Shown in pieces: positions 43,452 to 52,382 of a DNA stretch of 64,000 bases (within the stretch, counting starts at the first letter, position 1; each line of letters begins with the position of its first letter). Origin of the DNA: Candidatus Hodarchaeota archaeon (GTDB taxonomy: Archaea > Asgardarchaeota > Heimdallarchaeia > Hodarchaeales > Hodarchaeaceae); the NCBI GenBank assembly GCA_016840035.1, contig JAEOTC010000030.1:51527-115526 (forward strand), in the 5' to 3' direction. The notes under the pieces were generated by a model. The model was given only the letters and a program-made list of their open reading frames with translations, was not told the origin of the DNA and ran no database searches. A program made the translations under genes and the position numbers.

Positions 43452-44453
43452 TTGGTGACTCTTGCTTTGAGAGAAAAATACCAAAACGCAAGTAATGCGC
43501 TAAATAAACTAAGTAATGCAGCTACCATTAAAGCTAAGCATCTATCTGATGTGGTTATCAAATCTTACTCACAGTTCCAAGAGATTCGATATCAGAGTGA
43601 GACTGTACCTGATATTATTATGCACTCCGATAATAAAAAATCGAATCTAAAAGAAAGTGGGGAAATTCGCGTTGCTCAGTTATTATCAGCTATTCTATGT
43701 GATCAAATAACAGAGAAATCTAATAAGTTGACGGAGGATCTTGAATTTGGAAGTATGGATCTAGATCTTCGTTCGGAAATATTAGAGCTTCGTGAACAAA
43801 TAACAAGATTGGAAGAAGTAGTACAAGTTCAAACTAAACTCGCTAATGGAGCACCAGTTTCAACCGAGGGAATTAAGAACTTGCAAAAGAAGTACGATTC
43901 CCGAATTAAACAATTAGAGAATACGCTTCTTCGACAAGAGGGACGTTCACTTACTATAACAGCGTTAGATGCAACCCAAAAACCAAAAATATTTGGAAAA
44001 GGAAAATTTATTGATAATTTAGCTGATTTAGTTCTTGAACAAGGAAAAACTCTTCGTGCTAGCGCAGGTGGTTACATTTCCATGGCAAACCTGTATACTT
44101 CGCTGAGAGATAAAGTTCCAGATATAAAATTCTCTTTGAAAGATCTAGAAAAAGCCTGTAAACAGTTAACCAAGCAATCATTAATCGAAGGGATTTCTAC
44201 TCAATCTGGAATTAAAATTGTCGAATTTACGCCAGTTTCTCTGGGAAAAGATGCTCGAAGCATATTTAATATCGCAGTTGAGAAGGGTTACGTTACAATT
44301 GAGGAAGTTATGATTCATACCAAATGGGATCAACAGCGAGTAACACGAGTATTAGATAGTCTTGTAAATCAAAATATTGCACGAAAAGTATCATCACTTG
44401 ATTCGGGAGATCAATATTACTTCCCGGGGTTATATGGAGATGATGATTGGTAG
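43452..44453 (+). CDS. ESCRT-II Vps22/Vps36-like (EAP30 domain) protein with N-terminal coiled coil
   Basis: GGYIS..LY..S.KDL.KA.K.L, P.SL..D, KGYVT..W...R...VL..L, QYYFPG tandem winged helices. Confidence 0.85.
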   Translation: MVTLALREKYQNASNALNKLSNAATIKAKHLSDVVIKSYSQFQEIRYQSETVPDIIMHSDNKKSNLKESGEIRVAQLLSAILCDQITEKSNKLTEDLEFGSMDLDLRSEILELREQITRLEEVVQVQTKLANGAPVSTEGIKNLQKKYDSRIKQLENTLLRQEGRSLTITALDATQKPKIFGKGKFIDNLADLVLEQGKTLRASAGGYISMANLYTSLRDKVPDIKFSLKDLEKACKQLTKQSLIEGISTQSGIKIVEFTPVSLGKDARSIFNIAVEKGYVTIEEVMIHTKWDQQRVTRVLDSLVNQNIARKVSSLDSGDQYYFPGLYGDDDW

Positions 44454-44462
44454 GTATAAACG

Positions 44463-45356
44463 ATGGCTGAACCAGATAAGTTTGGAGGATTATTCCGTAA
44501 AATTGGAGATACAATACATATTGGAACTAAGAAATTCAAAGGAAAAGCAATCTTAAATTCCAAGTTTGATGATACTCAAGGTACTTCATTGATTCATCGG
44601 GTGAAAGCAGAAGACAATGACAATTTCAGAAAAATTGATGGTTTTATTGTAAAAGAACCAGAAAATGCAGTCTTGTTGCAATCAGGCGTATTAATTGGGG
44701 TTGCAGGTAGTGGGATCTATGAACTCGAGAAATCTGCTAAGCACCCAGGAAGTGAAATAATATGGGTCACAAAGCGTGAATTCATCATTAAATGGGGTAC
44801 ACCAGGAATTTATACTTCGGATAATGTAATGGTCGGATGTTGGGGGATTTCTCGTATGAGAATAGTCAATCCTAGAAATTTTATAATGAATGTAGTGTCA
44901 CACAAGCAGTATTATAGCGGAGATGAGTTGAAAAACTGGGTAAAACAGACAATAATAGCAGCCGTCAAGCATGTTATGACTCGTTATACTGTCCCAGAGC
45001 TATTAAAGGAAAGAAGAAGTCTAGAGATTCAAACACGATCTGAACTAGGCCCTGAGAGTTCAAGATGGGGTTTGGAATTGGTAGGTCTAGATATTGGGGG
45101 ATTCAAAGTCCCGGAGGAATATGAAACACTCCTAACTTATGAAATTGAAAAGCAAATAATTGAAACTCGTCAAGAGCTTGCTGAAGAACGAGATCAGCTC
45201 GATAGTACTTCTGAGAAGATCAAAAAATTCGAATTAATGCTTGAACAAGCTGATGAGATGTTTCTAGCAGGAAAAATTTCTGAAAAACGCTATAAGGAAT
45301 TAACCGATAAATACTCGTCAAAACTGGCTAAATTGAAGGCACAAAATTCGCAATGA
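44463..45356 (+). CDS. SPFH/band-7 domain protein with coiled coil and SHOCT-like end
   Basis: IVKEPENAVLLQSG..G.Y, IKWGT, RWGLELV.LDI..F..PEE, GKISEKRY. Confidence 0.8.
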   Translation: MAEPDKFGGLFRKIGDTIHIGTKKFKGKAILNSKFDDTQGTSLIHRVKAEDNDNFRKIDGFIVKEPENAVLLQSGVLIGVAGSGIYELEKSAKHPGSEIIWVTKREFIIKWGTPGIYTSDNVMVGCWGISRMRIVNPRNFIMNVVSHKQYYSGDELKNWVKQTIIAAVKHVMTRYTVPELLKERRSLEIQTRSELGPESSRWGLELVGLDIGGFKVPEEYETLLTYEIEKQIIETRQELAEERDQLDSTSEKIKKFELMLEQADEMFLAGKISEKRYKELTDKYSSKLAKLKAQNSQ

Positions 45357-45366
45357 TGGTTCTTGA

Positions 45367-47124
45367 TTAACTCAATTTGAGGGAAGACCCACATTCTGGA
45401 CAAACACTCATTCCAACTGATTCCATTTCTTGATAACAACTTTGGCATACTTCAGCATTACAGAATTCACATATAAATTTTTCTTGATCGGTTTTTACCC
45501 AATTACAAACCACACATTCGAAAGAAACATAAGTTTTCCTTATTTGCAGTTGCATTTTTCTAATGCTTATGGTTCCCATAATTTTTTGATGAGTTATTAA
45601 TTTTTCAAGAATTTTTATAACCACGTCAGATGATTCACCAACAAAATCTATAATCTGATTAAGAGGGATATTCGTTACTTGACTATTCTGAATGTAGTTA
45701 ATCAATTGATTTTCAGTTGAATTAAGAGTCATGGATACTTCTTTTGGAGAAGTCCAACCTGATTTCAAAGGCCCCTGTTTACAAAAATAACATTCTTCAG
45801 TTGTCTCGAGATTATATGAAAAGGCATAAGTTAATTGACAGGAATGACAGTTTCGGGGCAAATCTATAATAAAGGCAGCAATATTTCCACAAAATGGACA
45901 TTCATGCGTACTGTCAATTTTTCTGCAGTTAGAACACATTACTCTTCTACAGTTTTGACACTCAAAGTAAATGTCGGGATTAGTATATGAGGAGGTATCA
46001 ATTTGGCAAAATATTTCCAAATTTTCAATTCCCTTAATTAAAAAAGGATTTATCGAATCTCCGGCGACTAAACGAAGTCTCAAACGAGTAGCTATATTTT
46101 TTATCAGTTTTAATAATTTTAAAACGTTTAAGTTTAATTTTGAAGCTATTCCCTCAATATCGATTCCATTGCCAAACCAGGAGATAAGTGAAATCTTTGA
46201 TAATCGATCCTGTGTCAAACTTCCACCTAAGCTTTCATTAAGAATTTCTAATAGTTTTAATAAATCATCATACGCTAAATCGAACCTTGAGACCCAGAAA
46301 TCTAAAGGAATTTCTTCATAAACATATATATCCCATAAAATTCTTGAAACAATGTCAATCGTAGAATAAATGTAATTCCCATCTTTGGAACGTATGAAGC
46401 TTATGTCTTCTCTAATTATGTCAAGTAAATCCCGAGCCTGACTATCTGATAATGCAGTGAGTCTAGAAAAATCCATAATTGAAACTTCAGATGAAACAAG
46501 AAAGCTTGTAGTAATGAATCTCTTAATTGCTTTTGTTGATCGTTCGTTTAGAGAAGGAAGGAAGAAATCAAGGTGAGTTAAGTTGTATAATCTTTGCTTA
46601 ATAGGATCAATGTATCCCCTGAAGAGATTTCTCTTAGCCATTAAGTCTAAAACAGCTTCTAACTGATCATCAGTCCAATAAAGGTGATTCAACATATAGT
46701 CGAGATCGTGGGAAGGGTTTTTTCCAATGTACTTTGTAATGAACACAATCGCTCCTGATGGTGTAAAAAATCTGCGTTTAATTATATCAAAAAAACCTTC
46801 AATTTGTTGAACGTAATCATAAATAACAGGTTCTAGTAATTTTCCATCTATATTCATTATGTCTATTAGCTCACAGATATCAACCATCCCTCCAGTATCA
46901 AGAAACTGTTGAATTTTTTTATTAAGATAAGATTTTGGAATAAAATAGACATTATTGTAGTCTAGAAGACCATTTAATTCTTGTTGCTGTATTTTGTCGT
47001 ATATAAATGCAATTAGCTTCATTTTATCAGTTTCGGAAGAAAAATCACTGAGCCGAATAGGTGATTGTGCCGTCGAAACTGCTTGTAACCATTTTGACCT
47101 CTTACGTCTTTGCATTTTGCACAA
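45367..47124 (-). CDS. Winged-helix/PCI-repeat protein with two RING-like Cys clusters; candidate E3 ligase
   Basis: Repeated wH units; CQID..CQNC..CSNC..CPFC; Zn ribbon CHSC..CYFC; PCI-like wH; terminal CVVC..CEFC..CQSC..CPEC. Confidence 0.65.
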   Translation of the reverse strand: MCKMQRRKRSKWLQAVSTAQSPIRLSDFSSETDKMKLIAFIYDKIQQQELNGLLDYNNVYFIPKSYLNKKIQQFLDTGGMVDICELIDIMNIDGKLLEPVIYDYVQQIEGFFDIIKRRFFTPSGAIVFITKYIGKNPSHDLDYMLNHLYWTDDQLEAVLDLMAKRNLFRGYIDPIKQRLYNLTHLDFFLPSLNERSTKAIKRFITTSFLVSSEVSIMDFSRLTALSDSQARDLLDIIREDISFIRSKDGNYIYSTIDIVSRILWDIYVYEEIPLDFWVSRFDLAYDDLLKLLEILNESLGGSLTQDRLSKISLISWFGNGIDIEGIASKLNLNVLKLLKLIKNIATRLRLRLVAGDSINPFLIKGIENLEIFCQIDTSSYTNPDIYFECQNCRRVMCSNCRKIDSTHECPFCGNIAAFIIDLPRNCHSCQLTYAFSYNLETTEECYFCKQGPLKSGWTSPKEVSMTLNSTENQLINYIQNSQVTNIPLNQIIDFVGESSDVVIKILEKLITHQKIMGTISIRKMQLQIRKTYVSFECVVCNWVKTDQEKFICEFCNAEVCQSCYQEMESVGMSVCPECGSSLKLS

Positions 47125-47276: not shown

Positions 47277-47609
47277 GTGAAAGAAACTAAGTTTAAATGC
47301 CAATTTTGTGGGTATGTTCCTCATTCACATGAACAACCTGGCACAGGTTCTTGGTATTGTCCTAGATGTGGAAAAAGAACAACAATTCGACTAAATGTCC
47401 CACGACCAAAGAAATTCAGTCAAAAACCTCCCCAATCTCGTCAAATCTCTCGTGATCAAATTTCTAGTAAGATTTACAATGAACTTACGAAAGGAAAGGG
47501 CCCAGAATTTGGTTTGAAAGAACCTTACATCAAACCAATGATCCAACCAATAAAACCCAAGATAAGAAAAGAGGTTAGAATTTTTTCTCCTTCAAATAAT
47601 AATGATTAA
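47277..47609 (+). CDS. Small Zn-ribbon protein with disordered basic tail
   Basis: CQFCG..WYCPRCG. Confidence 0.65.
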   Translation: MKETKFKCQFCGYVPHSHEQPGTGSWYCPRCGKRTTIRLNVPRPKKFSQKPPQSRQISRDQISSKIYNELTKGKGPEFGLKEPYIKPMIQPIKPKIRKEVRIFSPSNNND

Positions 47610-48856
47610 CTTTTTTTTGTTTTGAATCTAATAATAATTCTCTTCTCATCATCGTCAATTAAAGAACTGACGGTTATACGATCTCGATCTTTTAGAATCT
47701 CTCCTACCGGAACATCACCTGGAATTAATGTATTTCCTCTGAACCCGATGAAATCTTTCTTGAATTTTCGTTTTAATACGGTAAAGATGGTTCTACATTT
47801 TGATTTAGGATTAATATTAATTGTAGTCGGATTTTGGCAATACATAGAGGAATCTCCGCAAACCAAGCATTCTGGATCCTTTTTCAAATCAAACGAATTA
47901 ATAGTGCCAGTTAATGCCGAATATATTGTCAAATCAGGAATTCGGAATCGTTCTGAATCAATTAGGGTCTGGAAATACTTTCGACTTTTTTCTGGAAAAT
48001 GGTTCAATTTATCTAGAAAGAGAGTTTTAATAATTTCTTGTGATTGAATTCCACTGGTTACTGCATTAACTGTAATTAAGCTGGGAACATGGTACAATAC
48101 AGTTTGTATAACCTCTTTTTCATCAAAAAGAGGAAAATTATATTTTGATGCACTTTCATTTGCGAGTTTTGTCAGTTTGAGTGCATCTTCAGAGGAATTT
48201 TCATCAGGTTCCCTTTCATTGAGAGTATGAAATTCGTAAAGAGCTTTCCATGCACAGTGCTCCCTAATTCTAGGAGTTCCTACAAGTGTACATGGAGCAG
48301 TTAAAAGACGTGTTTCTTCTGGTGGATGAGGGGAATCACATGCTAAACATGCGGTGTTCTTAACATCAATACTTTGTACTTGTCCAAAATAACCATCAGT
48401 TGCAGAATCTATAAACGGTAAAGACAGTTCTATTGCATGTTCGTTAATATATTGACGTGCCAGAAAATTATCAACACATCCAGAAATAATGTCAGCCTCC
48501 TCAAATATACTGAAAGGTAACGATTGAATAGTGTCAGAATATGCGTCAATATCAATGGAAGAATTAAATCGATCTTTGATTACTTCCTTTGCAACACGAG
48601 CTTTATTTTTTCCAATATCAGATCGGGAAAATAGCAATTGCCTATTCAGATTCGAAAATTCAATAGTATCCATATCAACAAGTATCAACTTTCCAATACC
48701 AAGTAATGCTAAATTCTTAGCTACTTCCCCCCCAGTGCCTCCAAGCCCAATAATCAGCACACAACTATCTTCGATTATACTCTGATCCCAGATGGAGAGT
48801 CGTTCCTGGCGATCAAATACAGAATCTGAGGGAATCGAGTTCATTGAGATTTCCAT
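47606..48856 (-). CDS. Ubiquitin-like activating enzyme E1 (eukaryote-like UBA3/UBA2 type)
   Basis: FDRQ, GLGGTG, DMDTIEFSNLNRQ, catalytic PCTLVGTPRIREHC, CxxC pairs, C-terminal ubiquitin-fold-like domain. Confidence 0.92.
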   Translation of the reverse strand: MEISMNSIPSDSVFDRQERLSIWDQSIIEDSCVLIIGLGGTGGEVAKNLALLGIGKLILVDMDTIEFSNLNRQLLFSRSDIGKNKARVAKEVIKDRFNSSIDIDAYSDTIQSLPFSIFEEADIISGCVDNFLARQYINEHAIELSLPFIDSATDGYFGQVQSIDVKNTACLACDSPHPPEETRLLTAPCTLVGTPRIREHCAWKALYEFHTLNEREPDENSSEDALKLTKLANESASKYNFPLFDEKEVIQTVLYHVPSLITVNAVTSGIQSQEIIKTLFLDKLNHFPEKSRKYFQTLIDSERFRIPDLTIYSALTGTINSFDLKKDPECLVCGDSSMYCQNPTTININPKSKCRTIFTVLKRKFKKDFIGFRGNTLIPGDVPVGEILKDRDRITVSSLIDDDEKRIIIRFKTKKS

Positions 48857-48879: not shown

Positions 48880-49209
48880 TTATCCCCCTTTTATCTGATC
48901 AGGAACTATCATCAGAAGAGCGTTTTCTTCAATATTGTATGAAGCAAGATTATTTGATGGATTCATCCTTCGTCCTTTAAATAAAAGTGCAATTGGTACA
49001 ACTTCAGGAATATTAAAAGCATCACGAGCCGCAGAAAGTGCTTGAAACACTGTGCCGTTAATATTGATGTACTTTTCACGAATATTTTGATCGGGTGGAA
49101 GTTGTGGATCCTTAAAGCGGACTTTTATCATACGTTCAATAGTATCCGATGGTGTCCCCGGGGAGCTGACATTTGAGTCCCAGACCACATCTTTTTTTCG
49201 ATTACTCAT
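48880..49209 (-). CDS. Ubiquitin-like modifier ending in GG, with N-terminal extension
   Basis: Beta-grasp pattern (IKVRFK, LLFKGRRM, LASYNIEE), C-terminal KGG-stop, adjacent to E1; ATG 49209 after AGGTGA. Confidence 0.88.
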   Translation of the reverse strand: MSNRKKDVVWDSNVSSPGTPSDTIERMIKVRFKDPQLPPDQNIREKYININGTVFQALSAARDAFNIPEVVPIALLFKGRRMNPSNNLASYNIEENALLMIVPDQIKGG

Positions 49210-49229
49210 TTTTTTCACCTTGCTTGTCC

Positions 49230-50018
49230 TTATACATAGAATAAGCGTTCGATTTCGGCTAATACAGTAATAAGATCAATACGACCTTTCGCATAATCTT
49301 CTAAAGGTCCACGAATCAGAGGGTATCTTGAAAGAACTTCACTTTCGAGTCCTATCGGGTAATTTTTCTTTCTCTTAATTGTAAACGGAATAATTTCTCC
49401 CGTTTGAGCATAAAAATTTATCTTGATTTCCTTTTTTGAATATGTGGCATCGTAGCTTTCCAATATTTGTCGAATTAATGGATCTTTTTCTTTGATTATG
49501 GTATCTGAAACAGAAGCTATCGGACTAGGATCGAGTTTCTGAGGGATTTGTTTTTCTGATATCTGGTAGATTTCTTCTAGTACGTCTAAAACTGAGCTTG
49601 TTCCAGGTTTCCAATTTTTCATTGTTTGAAGATCAATAATCTCACAATCTAATACTTCTCGAAGGGTATTTGGACCATCGATGAATGGTTTGTCTGGTAA
49701 ATCATCAAGAACAATTAATAATGGAAATGCGTACTGTCCAACCTGCATTTTAACACGAATTTTGCCTACTTCTTCTCCTACTAATTCCCCTGGAAAATTC
49801 TCAAGGATTTTTTGGGATTCTTGGTATAATGTATAGTAGTGTTCAGATTCAACTTCTTCGTCAACTGAACTTTCGTCAACGGCAATACCCTGTGGTTTCT
49901 TGAGATAATTTGTTAAATCACAATAATCACAATGAACAGGACGAAGAGAAGAAGGTTTTCCTGACAAAGGAGCACCACATCCATTGCACTGGGCAACATC
50001 TGTTTCGAGAGCAGTCAT
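49230..50018 (-). CDS. Zn-ribbon plus UEV/RWD-like (inactive E2-fold) protein
   Basis: CNGCGAPL..CDYC; LPDKPFI..LQTMKNWKP..SVLDVLEEI matches the UBC-fold pattern without HPN. Confidence 0.6.
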   Translation of the reverse strand: MTALETDVAQCNGCGAPLSGKPSSLRPVHCDYCDLTNYLKKPQGIAVDESSVDEEVESEHYYTLYQESQKILENFPGELVGEEVGKIRVKMQVGQYAFPLLIVLDDLPDKPFIDGPNTLREVLDCEIIDLQTMKNWKPGTSSVLDVLEEIYQISEKQIPQKLDPSPIASVSDTIIKEKDPLIRQILESYDATYSKKEIKINFYAQTGEIIPFTIKRKKNYPIGLESEVLSRYPLIRGPLEDYAKGRIDLITVLAEIERLFYV

Positions 50019-50338: not shown

Positions 50339-50890
50339 ATGTCTGATCTACATTCCAGACGATTAAGGGAAGAATTTAAGCGAATGCTAAAGATTTATCC
50401 CCCAAAAAGTGCGAACATAAAGTGGGTGATTGTGGATAATGATCTTCATCGCTATTCTGCGACAATAAAAGGGAAAGAAGGAACTCCATATGAAAATGGG
50501 GAATGGAAAATCACTATCGATTTACCACCCGAATATCCGTTTAAACCTCCAATTGTAAATTTCATCACACCAATCTGGCATCCCAATATTGCGATCGGTG
50601 AAACCCGATGGAAATGGGGTTCTAATGTGTGTTTGAGTCTGATAAATTGGAACAATATTGGTGAACCCGGTGGATGGAAGAAAACTATAACACTACCTAG
50701 CGTATTTGAACATATTGAAATGATGCTGGATGTGTATCAGAGTTCAGGAGATTCTGATTTTCCAGAATACCTTGTCGATCCTGGGGATCCATTCAATCCA
50801 GAAGCTGGAAAAATAATGCAGTCTAATTTTGACGGTTTTTGGGAAAAAGCTGTAGAGTGGACAGAGAAATTTGGGAAGAATAAATCCTAG
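50339..50890 (+). CDS. Ubiquitin-conjugating enzyme E2
   Basis: RRLREE, GTPYENG, PPEYPFKPP.V.F.TPIWHPNI, catalytic VCLSLI, DPFNPEA. Confidence 0.95.
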   Translation: MSDLHSRRLREEFKRMLKIYPPKSANIKWVIVDNDLHRYSATIKGKEGTPYENGEWKITIDLPPEYPFKPPIVNFITPIWHPNIAIGETRWKWGSNVCLSLINWNNIGEPGGWKKTITLPSVFEHIEMMLDVYQSSGDSDFPEYLVDPGDPFNPEAGKIMQSNFDGFWEKAVEWTEKFGKNKS

Positions 50891-50947: not shown

Positions 50948-51514
50948 ATGACCAACAAATATCCTCACGAAACTAAAAGTCTGAATAAAAAATCAGATGA
51001 AGATAAAATAGGCGATATAAACGACGAAACAATCAGTTTAAATGCTGAAACTAATTCTGTCATGATAACTCACAAAGCTATCGATGAGATTACGAATTTT
51101 TCACTAAACGCTATGCCAAAAGAGGCGATTGGACTACTTAGTGGAAGGGAAATCAGACCTAGAGAACTATTAATAACGAAGGGTCTATTTGTGACAGAGG
51201 GCGAGGAGTATTCGGTGTCCTTTTCTGAAAGTGATTTTCAGATTTTTGACCAAGTATCCAGTCCAGAATTTTGTGTTGGATGGTGGCACTCTCATCCAGG
51301 ATTTGGACTTTTCTTATCACAAACGGATATTACCACTCACATTTTTTCCTTCCAACTCGTTCAACCTCTCTCTGTGGCACTTGTAGTGGATCCTATGGAT
51401 ATTGGAGACGATGGTATTGCTAAATACAAGTTTTTCCAAATCGTTGGAGATTCACGAAATAGAGATTTTCAATATATTGAAATCGCAAGTTATCTATCAG
51501 TATCTAGTGAATAG
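50948..51514 (+). CDS. JAB1/MPN+ metalloprotease (Rpn11/CSN5-like deconjugase)
   Basis: E(AIGLL), VGWWHSHPGFGLFLSQTD JAMM motif, ALVVDP. Confidence 0.93.
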   Translation: MTNKYPHETKSLNKKSDEDKIGDINDETISLNAETNSVMITHKAIDEITNFSLNAMPKEAIGLLSGREIRPRELLITKGLFVTEGEEYSVSFSESDFQIFDQVSSPEFCVGWWHSHPGFGLFLSQTDITTHIFSFQLVQPLSVALVVDPMDIGDDGIAKYKFFQIVGDSRNRDFQYIEIASYLSVSSE

Positions 51515-51599: not shown

Positions 51600-52382
51600 A
51601 TGATACTAGATGATCTTCTATTGGGTATTTTTCTCTCCTTTGGGCAATTCTTCCTGCAAGGAGAATCAGCCGGACTCTTAGATACTATTATTGTACTTTT
51701 AGGACCAGGATTAGTATTATTTTTTACATTTTACTTACTATGGGCTGGAAGAAGGAAGAATCATAAAATTATCAATGTATCGAAAGATGCTCTTCTTGAA
51801 ATTTTCTCTAATGAATTTGATGATCTAGTAACTGATCAATTGAGCTCTAATGGTGGACTTTTATTTCCTAAGTATAAGAGAACATCTAGTATTCCTTTTA
51901 AGGACTTTAGAGTTGTATTTGCACTAGAGGAACGTCATTTAATGCTCTCGGTAATAATTTCATGGTTTTCAGGAGCAAATGACTATATTGCAGTTCAAGG
52001 TAACGCAAAAAAAGGGAAATTACCTACGAAGATTCAGATTATTCCAAATCATGAAGAAGGACAGATTAAGAAGCACCAAGACTTACTTTTTGAATTGAAA
52101 GATATTAAGTTGAATTCTGAATTATTGGATCAGTTTTTTCTCATGAAAGCAACATCAGTTAAGATGGGAAGCTTCTTTCTCAAGGATAAACCTCTATTAA
52201 AGCAAATTTATTCCATTCGAAATTCACTAGTTCGTTTATCAATTGATTCTACCGAGGATCCTGCTATTAGACTCTATTGTAGAATAAATAAGGATTTAGA
52301 CCTAAAGAAGCTGCATAGAGTTTTTATATCGCTTGTAGAAAGGGTAAATCAAGTAGCGGATAAAAAAGTGATGAGGAAATAA
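51600..52382 (+). CDS. CCDC47/DUF1682 (PAT complex subunit)-like membrane protein
   Basis: TM helix followed by GRRKN..I......L....F, then L.ERH.ML..I......D.I, like the CCDC47 juxtamembrane domain. Confidence 0.6.
   Translation: MILDDLLLGIFLSFGQFFLQGESAGLLDTIIVLLGPGLVLFFTFYLLWAGRRKNHKIINVSKDALLEIFSNEFDDLVTDQLSSNGGLLFPKYKRTSSIPFKDFRVVFALEERHLMLSVIISWFSGANDYIAVQGNAKKGKLPTKIQIIPNHEEGQIKKHQDLLFELKDIKLNSELLDQFFLMKATSVKMGSFFLKDKPLLKQIYSIRNSLVRLSIDSTEDPAIRLYCRINKDLDLKKLHRVFISLVERVNQVADKKVMRK

Follow-up and report, generated by a model that had tools for sequence, protein, structure and literature searches.

The window analysed here is a stretch of 64,000 nucleotides from a Candidatus Hodarchaeota archaeon (Hodarchaeales; assembly GCA_016840035.1, contig JAEOTC010000030.1, positions 51,527-115,526 of the forward strand), and its minus strand carries, beside the genes of a ubiquitin-type cascade, a gene for a multidomain protein resembling the UFM1 ligase UFL1. 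This UFL1-like gene lies in a single open frame (45367-47124), which was extended mechanically to a TTG codon at 47124. The ATG at 47115 was taken as the start instead, because the database copy of the protein (P0001) and all orthologues begin at the corresponding M-x-x-R-K, and the product is thus 582 amino acids (aa) long, as in P0001. The gene had been proposed in an initial annotation made from the letters of the DNA and, apart from the amended start, it is real and conserved, with ~60 full-length relatives of ~583 aa and 42-70% identity in metagenome bins of Hodarchaeales/Heimdallarchaeia. When 1.8 billion cluster representatives were searched exhaustively with HMMER, only 21 clusters matched, a few of them down to 23-35% identity. 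A survey of 301 Asgard genomes detected the protein in full length in all 20 genomes of its own genus and in one of the two of a sister family, and not outside these two groups. By these searches the family is specific to Hodarchaeales and their close kin.

The N-terminal half of the protein is, as judged from sequence profiles and a structural model, a scaffold of the UFL1 type. The AlphaFold2 model was built on 35 relatives (predicted local distance difference test score, pLDDT, 87.4; predicted template modelling score, pTM, 0.76), and all residue conservation and Pfam member counts given below likewise refer to 35 sequences of the family. Residues 2-14 are modelled as a helix, with W9 and P19 nearly invariant, and are followed by a partial winged-helix (WH) domain, composed of a helix (28-43) and a hairpin (49-60), and by five WH domains in tandem. 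According to PMC9627666, human UFL1 begins with a helix (1-25) and a partial WH, on which five PCI-like WH domains follow; the same elements were found in series in the model and in register by superposition. When the model was compared with the PDB using Foldseek, UFL1 chains took ranks 1 to 5 (E-values 3.8e-10 to 3.7e-8; best matches 8ohd_A 3.8e-10, 8qfc_B 1.5e-9, 9gy4_E 1.4e-8 and 8b9x 3.2e-8), and the first fold other than UFL1 was the WH array of SelB at 1.6e-4. With a second aligner, residues 26-166 superposed in register on UFL1 24-162 with Z 9.8 and a root-mean-square deviation (rmsd) of 4.7 A over 133 residues. Similarly, a profile of the family run against 177,635 PDB sequences retrieved at E<1e-4 UFL1 chains only (1e-6 to 6.7e-5; 8b9x 1e-6, 8c0d 1.1e-5, 8qfc 1.5e-5). 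The stretch quoted in the initial annotation as resembling the UFL1 N-terminus is the one that HMMER aligns to human UFL1 residues ~60-117. The Pfam family PF09743 matched 18 of the 35 relatives, below or near threshold (best 3e-6); the window protein stays under the curated cut-off of this family. The C-terminal helical region (CTR) of UFL1 is absent, residues 365-582 being modelled as zinc fingers, a WH and a last finger.

Within this C-terminal half, the WH of residues 462-528 superposed on CSN2 with Z 11.4 (rmsd 1.1 A, 62 residues, 23% identity) and on DDRGK1 210-272 with Z 9.1 and 8.6 (rmsd 2.5 A over 63 residues for Z 9.1). The PCI family PF01399 matched 26 of the 35 relatives (best 1.9e-7), the window protein itself reaching E 0.59 only, and profile-level matches of the family to DDRGK1 were weak (E 0.11-0.46). 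The units previously read as PCI/DDRGK-like are predicted WH domains, and that of residues 462-528 is PCI-like; a specific likeness to DDRGK1 over the general likeness to PCI domains is not established.

The last domain is a C4C4 finger with the ligands C534xxC537-x11-C549xxC552-x4-C557xxC560-x11-C572xxC575, all eight invariant or nearly so and with the spacing of a cross-brace. Its separate model (pLDDT 86.6) has two hairpins, and the sixth Cys is followed by a helix. Nearly all Foldseek matches of the finger were U-box, RING or ZZ domains (TM-score 0.53-0.65, probability mostly 0.9-0.99). The solved neighbours found with an exhaustive aligner spanned Z 4.2-6.6 and included a chain of the Saccharolobus 30S ribosome (9fhl_a, 6.6), the ZZ domain of Nbr1 (6.0) and the RING domains of Nse1 (5.7), Listerin (LTN1; 5.3) and TRAF3 (5.3); the Atlas neighbours were DUF1272, zf-RING_2, zf_RING-like and Nse1 RING-like. 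FYVE and PHD domains were not prominent among the fold neighbours, so that a FYVE, PHD or plain ribbon fold, named in the initial annotation as the outcome that would speak against a RING, was not what was found here. RING and ZZ domains are inseparable at this level of fold match. In the complexes of c-Cbl and CNOT4, three hydrophobic RING positions touch the E2 conjugating enzyme, one behind the first Cys (C1), one in the helix that follows the sixth (C6) and a Pro behind the seventh (C7). The finger has V or I at C1+2 in 32 of the 35 sequences, M, I or L at C6+4 in all 35, and Pro after C7 in 31. In ZZ domains, an acidic residue after the first Cys binds N-termini and the last ligand pair is His. 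The finger, by comparison, ends in a Cys/Cys pair and varies at C1+1 (among others G, S, V and K), which speaks against a ZZ identity; on the other side, PF00569 (ZZ) matched 12 of the 35 members (best 1.9e-4) and ZZ domains stand high among the fold matches.

Between the WH array and the PCI-type WH lie a central finger and a zinc ribbon (residues 366-448), with ligands that are invariant or nearly so; two Cys-rich cross-brace candidates and a ribbon had been noticed in the sequence before, and the Cys pattern is as then described. The ribbon keeps its four Cys without exception, down to the most distant relatives of the family, and the most divergent of these (P0069) has nothing else of the central region. 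An hhalign comparison aligned the central finger (367-416) with the C-terminal one (prob 79.6, E 1.5e-5), placing C370/D373 on C534/C537. The central finger is therefore a shortened duplicate of the C-terminal finger, without room for the RING helix. Since it lacks this room and is modelled all-beta (pLDDT 66-87), it can be called RING-like by topology only; the whole region 366-448 is all-beta in the model (pLDDT 66-90). Searches of the central zinc region against known families gave only chance-level matches in the PDB profile search (E>=0.27) and at most 0.80 in the Atlas feature search.

The C-terminal half occurs on its own as well, in a free-standing paralogue of ~380 aa (381 aa) with the order WH-finger-WH-finger; hhalign aligned this paralogue with the whole of residues 313-582 (prob 99, E 3.7e-18). 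The UFL1-like protein is therefore a true fusion, in which a UFL1-like array has been joined to a WH-finger-WH-finger module. The free-standing protein is encoded in a sister genome (G250; L021:807-1952), and the genome of the window has what is probably a partial copy (G000:C29:165-497). Ubiquitin genes were not seen among the neighbours of the 381-aa paralogue. Other open frames in the same genomes gave weaker matches to the region of the C-terminal finger.

Table 1. Features of the UFL1-like gene and of its neighbours (positions in the window).
Feature	Position	Strand	Basis or remark
Vps22/EAP30-like gene	43452-44453	plus	among the most persistent neighbours of the family
SPFH/Band 7 gene	44463-45356	plus	among the most persistent neighbours of the family
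UFL1-like gene	45367-47115	minus	582 codons and stop; mechanical frame reaches TTG at 47124
C-terminal C4C4 finger, RING/U-box/ZZ fold (residues 530-582)	45370-45528	minus	model and fold matches; helix after sixth Cys
PCI-type WH, also like DDRGK1/UFBP1 WH (462-528)	45532-45732	minus	structural superposition and Pfam PCI
Zinc ribbon (420-448)	45772-45858	minus	C423, C426, C442, C445
Central finger, cross-brace by ligand pattern (366-412)	45880-46020	minus	C370/D373, C386/C389, C394/C397, C406/C409; H404 nearly invariant
Five tandem WH domains (61-363)	46027-46935	minus	model: 61-117, 119-178, 191-251, 252-306, 310-363
N-terminal helix and partial WH (1-60)	46936-47115	minus	DSSP of AlphaFold2 model; collinear with UFL1 N-helix and partial WH
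Small Zn-ribbon protein, 110 aa, conserved basic C-terminal motif	47277-47609	plus	homologous copies beside the UFL1-like gene
Activating enzyme (E1), ThiF fold, Uba1/SAE2/UBA3 type	47606-48856	minus	ThiF 4.2e-52
Ubiquitin-like modifier (Ubl), 112 aa, Gly-Gly end	48880-49218	minus	matches ubiquitin residues 43-71; without Pfam Ufm1 match
Conserved 262-aa protein, first gene of Ubl-E1 unit	49230-50018	minus	N-terminal Zn ribbon and two further domains
Canonical E2, HPN motif, catalytic Cys, YPFKPP loop kept	50339-50890	plus	UQ_con 2.4e-24
JAB/MPN deubiquitinase-like protease	50948-51514	plus	JAB 5.3e-8
Conserved 260-aa protein between JAB gene and Arf-like GTPases	51600-52382	plus	no Pfam match at E<=0.01

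The order of the genes in the window (Vps22-like, SPFH, UFL1-like, small Zn-ribbon, E1, Ubl, 262-aa, E2, JAB, 260-aa, two Arf-like) recurs in relatives of the same genus at 35-46% identity. In a relative at ~30% identity the order differs, with JAB, E2 and E1 genes still adjoining the UFL1-like gene and a 104-aa gene in the position of the small Zn-ribbon gene. In two distant lineages (L022 and L035), the EAP30, SPFH and UFL1-like genes are co-directional, abutting or overlapping, and are accompanied by a small Zn-ribbon gene. The constant core is therefore composed of the Vps22-like, SPFH, UFL1-like and small Zn-ribbon genes, the ubiquitin enzymes being frequent but not obligatory neighbours. 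The small Zn-ribbon protein (~100-110 aa) has an N-terminal C-x2-C...C-P-x-C-G-K-R and a C-terminal P-K-K/R-R-x-x-I/V-R-L/I-F motif, and its copies (L001:7499-7816, L002:7505-7825, L035:9780-10079, L022:6647-6946) adjoin the UFL1-like gene, on one strand or the other, in each of the lineages checked, which makes it a candidate for a partner or substrate of the UFL1-like protein. A scan for bacterial-type promoters and terminators around the UFL1-like gene gave the same counts as shuffled sequences, with models that are not applicable to archaea.

The modifier, E1 and E2 encoded beside the UFL1-like gene are, by their sequences, of the ubiquitin type and not of the UFM1/UFC1/UBA5 type. The E1 scored 2.1e-34 with Uba1 and 5e-33 with SAE2 as compared to 9.4e-15 with UBA5. 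Pfam Ufm1, UFC1 and DDRGK matched nothing in the window's genome (87% complete), and Pfam Ufm1 was found in none of the 301 Asgard genomes. No other RING-like gene was found in the cluster of the window, which also includes two Arf-like GTPase genes past the 260-aa gene. After its catalytic Cys the E2 carries N-W-N-N-x-G-x-P-G-G-W-K, conserved in three orthologues, which we take to be an insertion replacing the usual S-P-A loop of UbcH5-type E2s. The 262-aa protein showed a weak SUMO-like strand match at residues 187-216; it was considered as an E2, UEV or RWD protein and rejected as such, with no Pfam match, PDB profile E>=0.16 and an Atlas score of 0.76. Another contig of the same genome (C184; L023, L026, L029) encodes a canonical 250-aa Vps22, a 244-aa frame with a partial UQ_con match (UEV) and a 175-aa E2. 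Given this separate locus with a canonical Vps22, the cluster of the window is a second, specialised ubiquitin-like system with its own Vps22 paralogue.

Taken with this gene context, the architecture makes it on balance rather probable that the UFL1-like fusion protein serves the neighbouring ubiquitin-type cascade as an E3 ligase or an E3-like adaptor. The C-terminal C4C4 finger would dock the charged E2 in the manner of a RING, with the hydrophobic residue following C1, the helix behind C6 and the Pro next to C7 as contacts, whereas the WH array would hold the substrate or partner proteins, most plausibly the Vps22-like, SPFH and small Zn-ribbon proteins. The co-conservation of these three partners suggests a membrane-associated target of the system. 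An E3 activity is suggested by the gene context and by one complex prediction, in which the E2 and the finger scored an ipSAE of 0.46 (runs of 0.42, 0.46 and 0.53) as compared to 0.00 for all three controls, with a contact agreement of at least 96% between runs and a partner pLDDT of at least 83. The mark used for such predictions had been passed by 58 of 80 solved complexes and by 2 of 110 mismatched pairs. The prediction lends weak support to a RING-like docking, and, as RING and E2 are a textbook pair, the pass may merely reflect likeness to solved complexes.

Several observations weigh against such an E3 role. In calibration, scores of up to 0.60 were more often wrong than right unless the pairing was likely beforehand, and the pairing of finger and E2, like the E3 role itself, is put forward from computation and gene context. 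The finger of the window protein falls below every Pfam RING cut-off, zf-RING_4, zf-RING_5, C1_2, B-box, DZR and ZZ all being sub-threshold; these scores are those of the window's own finger, those of other members being implied by their best E-values (zf-RING_4 in 30 of the 35, best 2.4e-4; zf-RING_5 in 28 of the 35, best 2.6e-5). No basic linchpin residue is found past the last Cys, where 31 of the 35 sequences have Gly, and ZZ domains, which bind peptides rather than E2s, fit the fold of the finger about equally well. Of the NOT4-type C4C4 RING proposed initially, the close ligand spacing and the RING/U-box/ZZ fold hold, whereas the assignment to RING in preference to ZZ is tentative. On the scaffold side, the window protein itself has no PF09743 match at E<1 in the Pfam scan. 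Finally, the stretches read in the two distant lineages L022 and L035 contain the EAP30-SPFH-UFL1-like operon and no Ubl, E1 or E2 gene, so that the ubiquitin link is not universal. The initial proposal of a single-chain scaffold-plus-RING E3 is thus supported in part: its architecture is borne out, with a UFL1-like array, a PCI-type WH, two fingers and a ribbon in one chain, and its RING identity and E3 activity are putative.

In the main rival reading, the protein would be a non-catalytic adaptor, its fingers being ZZ/DC1-like peptide-binding or structural modules that bridge the membrane module of Vps22-like and SPFH proteins and the small Zn-ribbon protein, possibly with recognition of modified cargo and without activation of an E2. 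The EAP30, SPFH and small Zn-ribbon genes are kept in all lineages with readable flanks, including the two without nearby Ubl genes; ZZ domains (Nbr1 with Z 6.0, p62, PRT1, BIG) are among the best fold matches of the finger, of which the motif Y-x-C-x-x-C-x3-V-C-x-x-C-Y resembles ZZ and DC1; the linchpin is missing; and other Asgard lineages fuse a UFL1-like array to the C-terminal domain of Vps28, part of an adaptor of the endosomal sorting complexes required for transport (ESCRT). However, position C1+1 is variable and not acidic as in ZZ domains, the last ligand pair is Cys/Cys, the three RING positions for E2 contact are conserved, and three lineages, between them showing two gene orders, have the Ubl, E1, E2 and JAB genes close by, and an adaptor of this kind is, although a serious competitor, rather unlikely. 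A nucleic-acid-binding factor, with tandem WH domains and a Zn ribbon as in SelB, TFIIE/RPC62 and archaeal transcription factors, is very improbable. SelB, TFIIIC tauB, RPC62 and Pyrococcus PF0095 do appear among the weaker matches (Foldseek >=1.6e-4, profile E ~0.02), and Zn ribbons are common among archaeal transcription factors, but UFL1 leads such matches by 4 to 6 orders of magnitude in Foldseek, the WH domains belong to the PCI type, which serves in protein scaffolding, the isoelectric point is 6.4 for the WH array and 5.5 for the whole protein, and the genes around are ubiquitin- and ESCRT-like.

The collinearity of the N-terminal array with UFL1 could also mean that the protein is a true UFL1 orthologue working with a UFM1/UFC1/UBA5-type cascade, and Ufm1-like folds have been described in nine Asgard clades in a 2026 paper (PMC12962969). 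Several findings speak against it: the adjacent Ubl aligns to ubiquitin 43-71 and has a GG end, the E1 is far nearer to Uba1/SAE2 (~1e-34) than to UBA5 (~1e-14), the E2 is a canonical UQ_con protein with HPN, Pfam Ufm1 is missing from the Asgard genomes searched, and UFL1's C-terminal region is lacking. As Pfam Ufm1, UFC1 and DDRGK also match nothing in a genome that is 87% complete, the protein is most probably not a UFM1 ligase, and we hold such an orthologue to be extremely improbable. A further proposal, which takes the favoured E3 reading back in time and appears doubtful at best, is that the protein represents an ancestral state of the UFL1 lineage, in which a WH scaffold with its own RING drove a ubiquitin-type E2 at membranes, together with ESCRT-II-like and SPFH partners, and from which eukaryotic UFL1/UFBP1 came about when the RING was lost and the later UFM1/UFC1 system took over the scaffold. 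If true, it would account for the RING-like kinetics of UFL1, a scaffold-type E3 that has no RING.

Full-text searches of the literature on UFL1, UFM1, UFMylation or ubiquitin in Asgard archaea or Hodarchaeales brought up no description of a RING-bearing UFL1-like protein linked to a ubiquitin cluster. To our knowledge, UFL1 is unusual among E3 ligases in having no recognisable catalytic module, its origin is obscure, and archaeal ubiquitin systems have so far been known with small RING proteins only. Hodarchaeales is the order often placed closest to eukaryotes, and cultured strains of it have been reported (bioRxiv 10.1101/2025.02.26.640444). In this family a UFL1-type scaffold shares one chain with RING-like fingers and is tied by gene context to a complete ubiquitin-type cascade and to ESCRT-II-like and SPFH genes, and the protein adds a multidomain E3 candidate to the archaeal ubiquitin systems. 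It may reveal the form that UFL1-type ligases had in the time before UFM1 and provides a concrete, testable hypothesis on the function of UFL1-like proteins at that stage, with components that are small, soluble and suited to reconstitution.

Among known systems, the closest in layout is human UFL1 with UFBP1/DDRGK1 (8ohd, 8qfc, 8b9x, 8c0d), in which five PCI-like WH domains likewise follow an N-terminal helix and a partial WH, in matching order and register. Both systems involve an extra PCI/DDRGK1-like WH, which in the archaeal protein is part of the same chain and C-terminal, and both proteins are scaffold-type partners of an E2, presumably so for the archaeal one. In contrast to human UFL1, the archaeal protein has two cross-brace fingers and a Zn ribbon in place of the C-terminal helical region, its neighbours are of the ubiquitin type, and the sequence match is at profile level only (1e-5 to 1e-6). 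As the initial annotation had stated, eukaryotic UFL1 has no RING, and no such finger is described in it (PMC9627666). UFL1 is a pure scaffold E3 that is devoid of RING, HECT and RBR modules, and the archaeal protein departs from it in carrying the two cross-brace fingers.

UFL1-like proteins of Asgard archaea were already known, and the present family is related by sequence comparison to the known Asgard form but differs from it in architecture. Liu et al. (bioRxiv 10.1101/2020.10.19.343400) reported Asgard proteins in which an E3 UFM1-ligase domain is joined to Vps28/Vps23 or adaptin parts, and an Asgard origin of UFL1 and DDRGK1 has been noted, UFL1- and DDRGK1-like proteins predating UFM1 there (PMC10183829). 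Such proteins of ~790-807 aa, with DDRGK, E3_UFM1_ligase, PCI and Vps28-C domains above the Pfam cut-offs, were recovered from another Asgard family, of which 62 of 68 genomes encode them. Two DDRGK-UFL1-PCI-Vps28-C chains of ~790 aa (L017:2680-5061, L018:3158-5530) correspond, as natural proteins, to 8b9x, an engineered chimera of DDRGK1 and UFL1. The profile of the present family matches the Asgard DDRGK-UFL1-Vps28 proteins over residues ~20-190 at 1e-6 to 1e-10 (hhalign prob 90), and both are tied to ESCRT, the former by the adjoining Vps22-like gene and the latter by fusion to Vps28-C. Unlike in the present protein, DDRGK precedes the UFL1 part, no Pfam zinc-finger match was found at E<=0.01, and the L017 locus has no ubiquitin genes among its neighbours. 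The only other PF09743 signal in the window's own genome (L003:538-2904, contig C11; E 0.09) was considered as a second UFL1-like gene and rejected as an orthologue; its 788-aa product has N-terminal HEAT repeats and a C-terminal WH array that is only distantly similar to WH1-WH3 (hhalign prob 72).

Nse1 of the SMC5/6 complex (7dg2, 2ct0) has WH domains directly followed by a C-terminal RING-like finger, as does the UFL1-like protein; the two fingers superpose with Z 5.7 and 26% identity (Atlas row 7), and the full model matched 7dg2_A with E 1.2e-2 and prob 0.99. Nse1 is, however, a kite protein with two WH domains, bound to kleisin in an SMC context, and the match is at fold level only. The RING of CNOT4 (NOT4) shares with the finger the eight Cys in nearly the same spacing, with x4 between ligands 4 and 5 and x11 ahead of the final pair, as well as a helix following C6 and a Pro following C7. 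NOT4 was among the profile matches of the finger (E 0.017), whereas its third and fourth ligands are C-x-C in place of C-x2-C and the archaeal finger lacks the linchpin and scores sub-threshold with the Pfam RING models. Finally, the minimal archaeal ubiquitin operon of the Caldiarchaeum subterraneum type consists of Ubl, E1, E2, a small RING E3 and a JAB deubiquitinase (PMC11354881), and the same five functional classes are clustered in the window. Unlike the small stand-alone RING of Caldiarchaeum, the E3 candidate of the window is a multidomain protein of 582 aa, and Vps22-like, SPFH, Arf-like and Zn-ribbon genes are added to the cluster.

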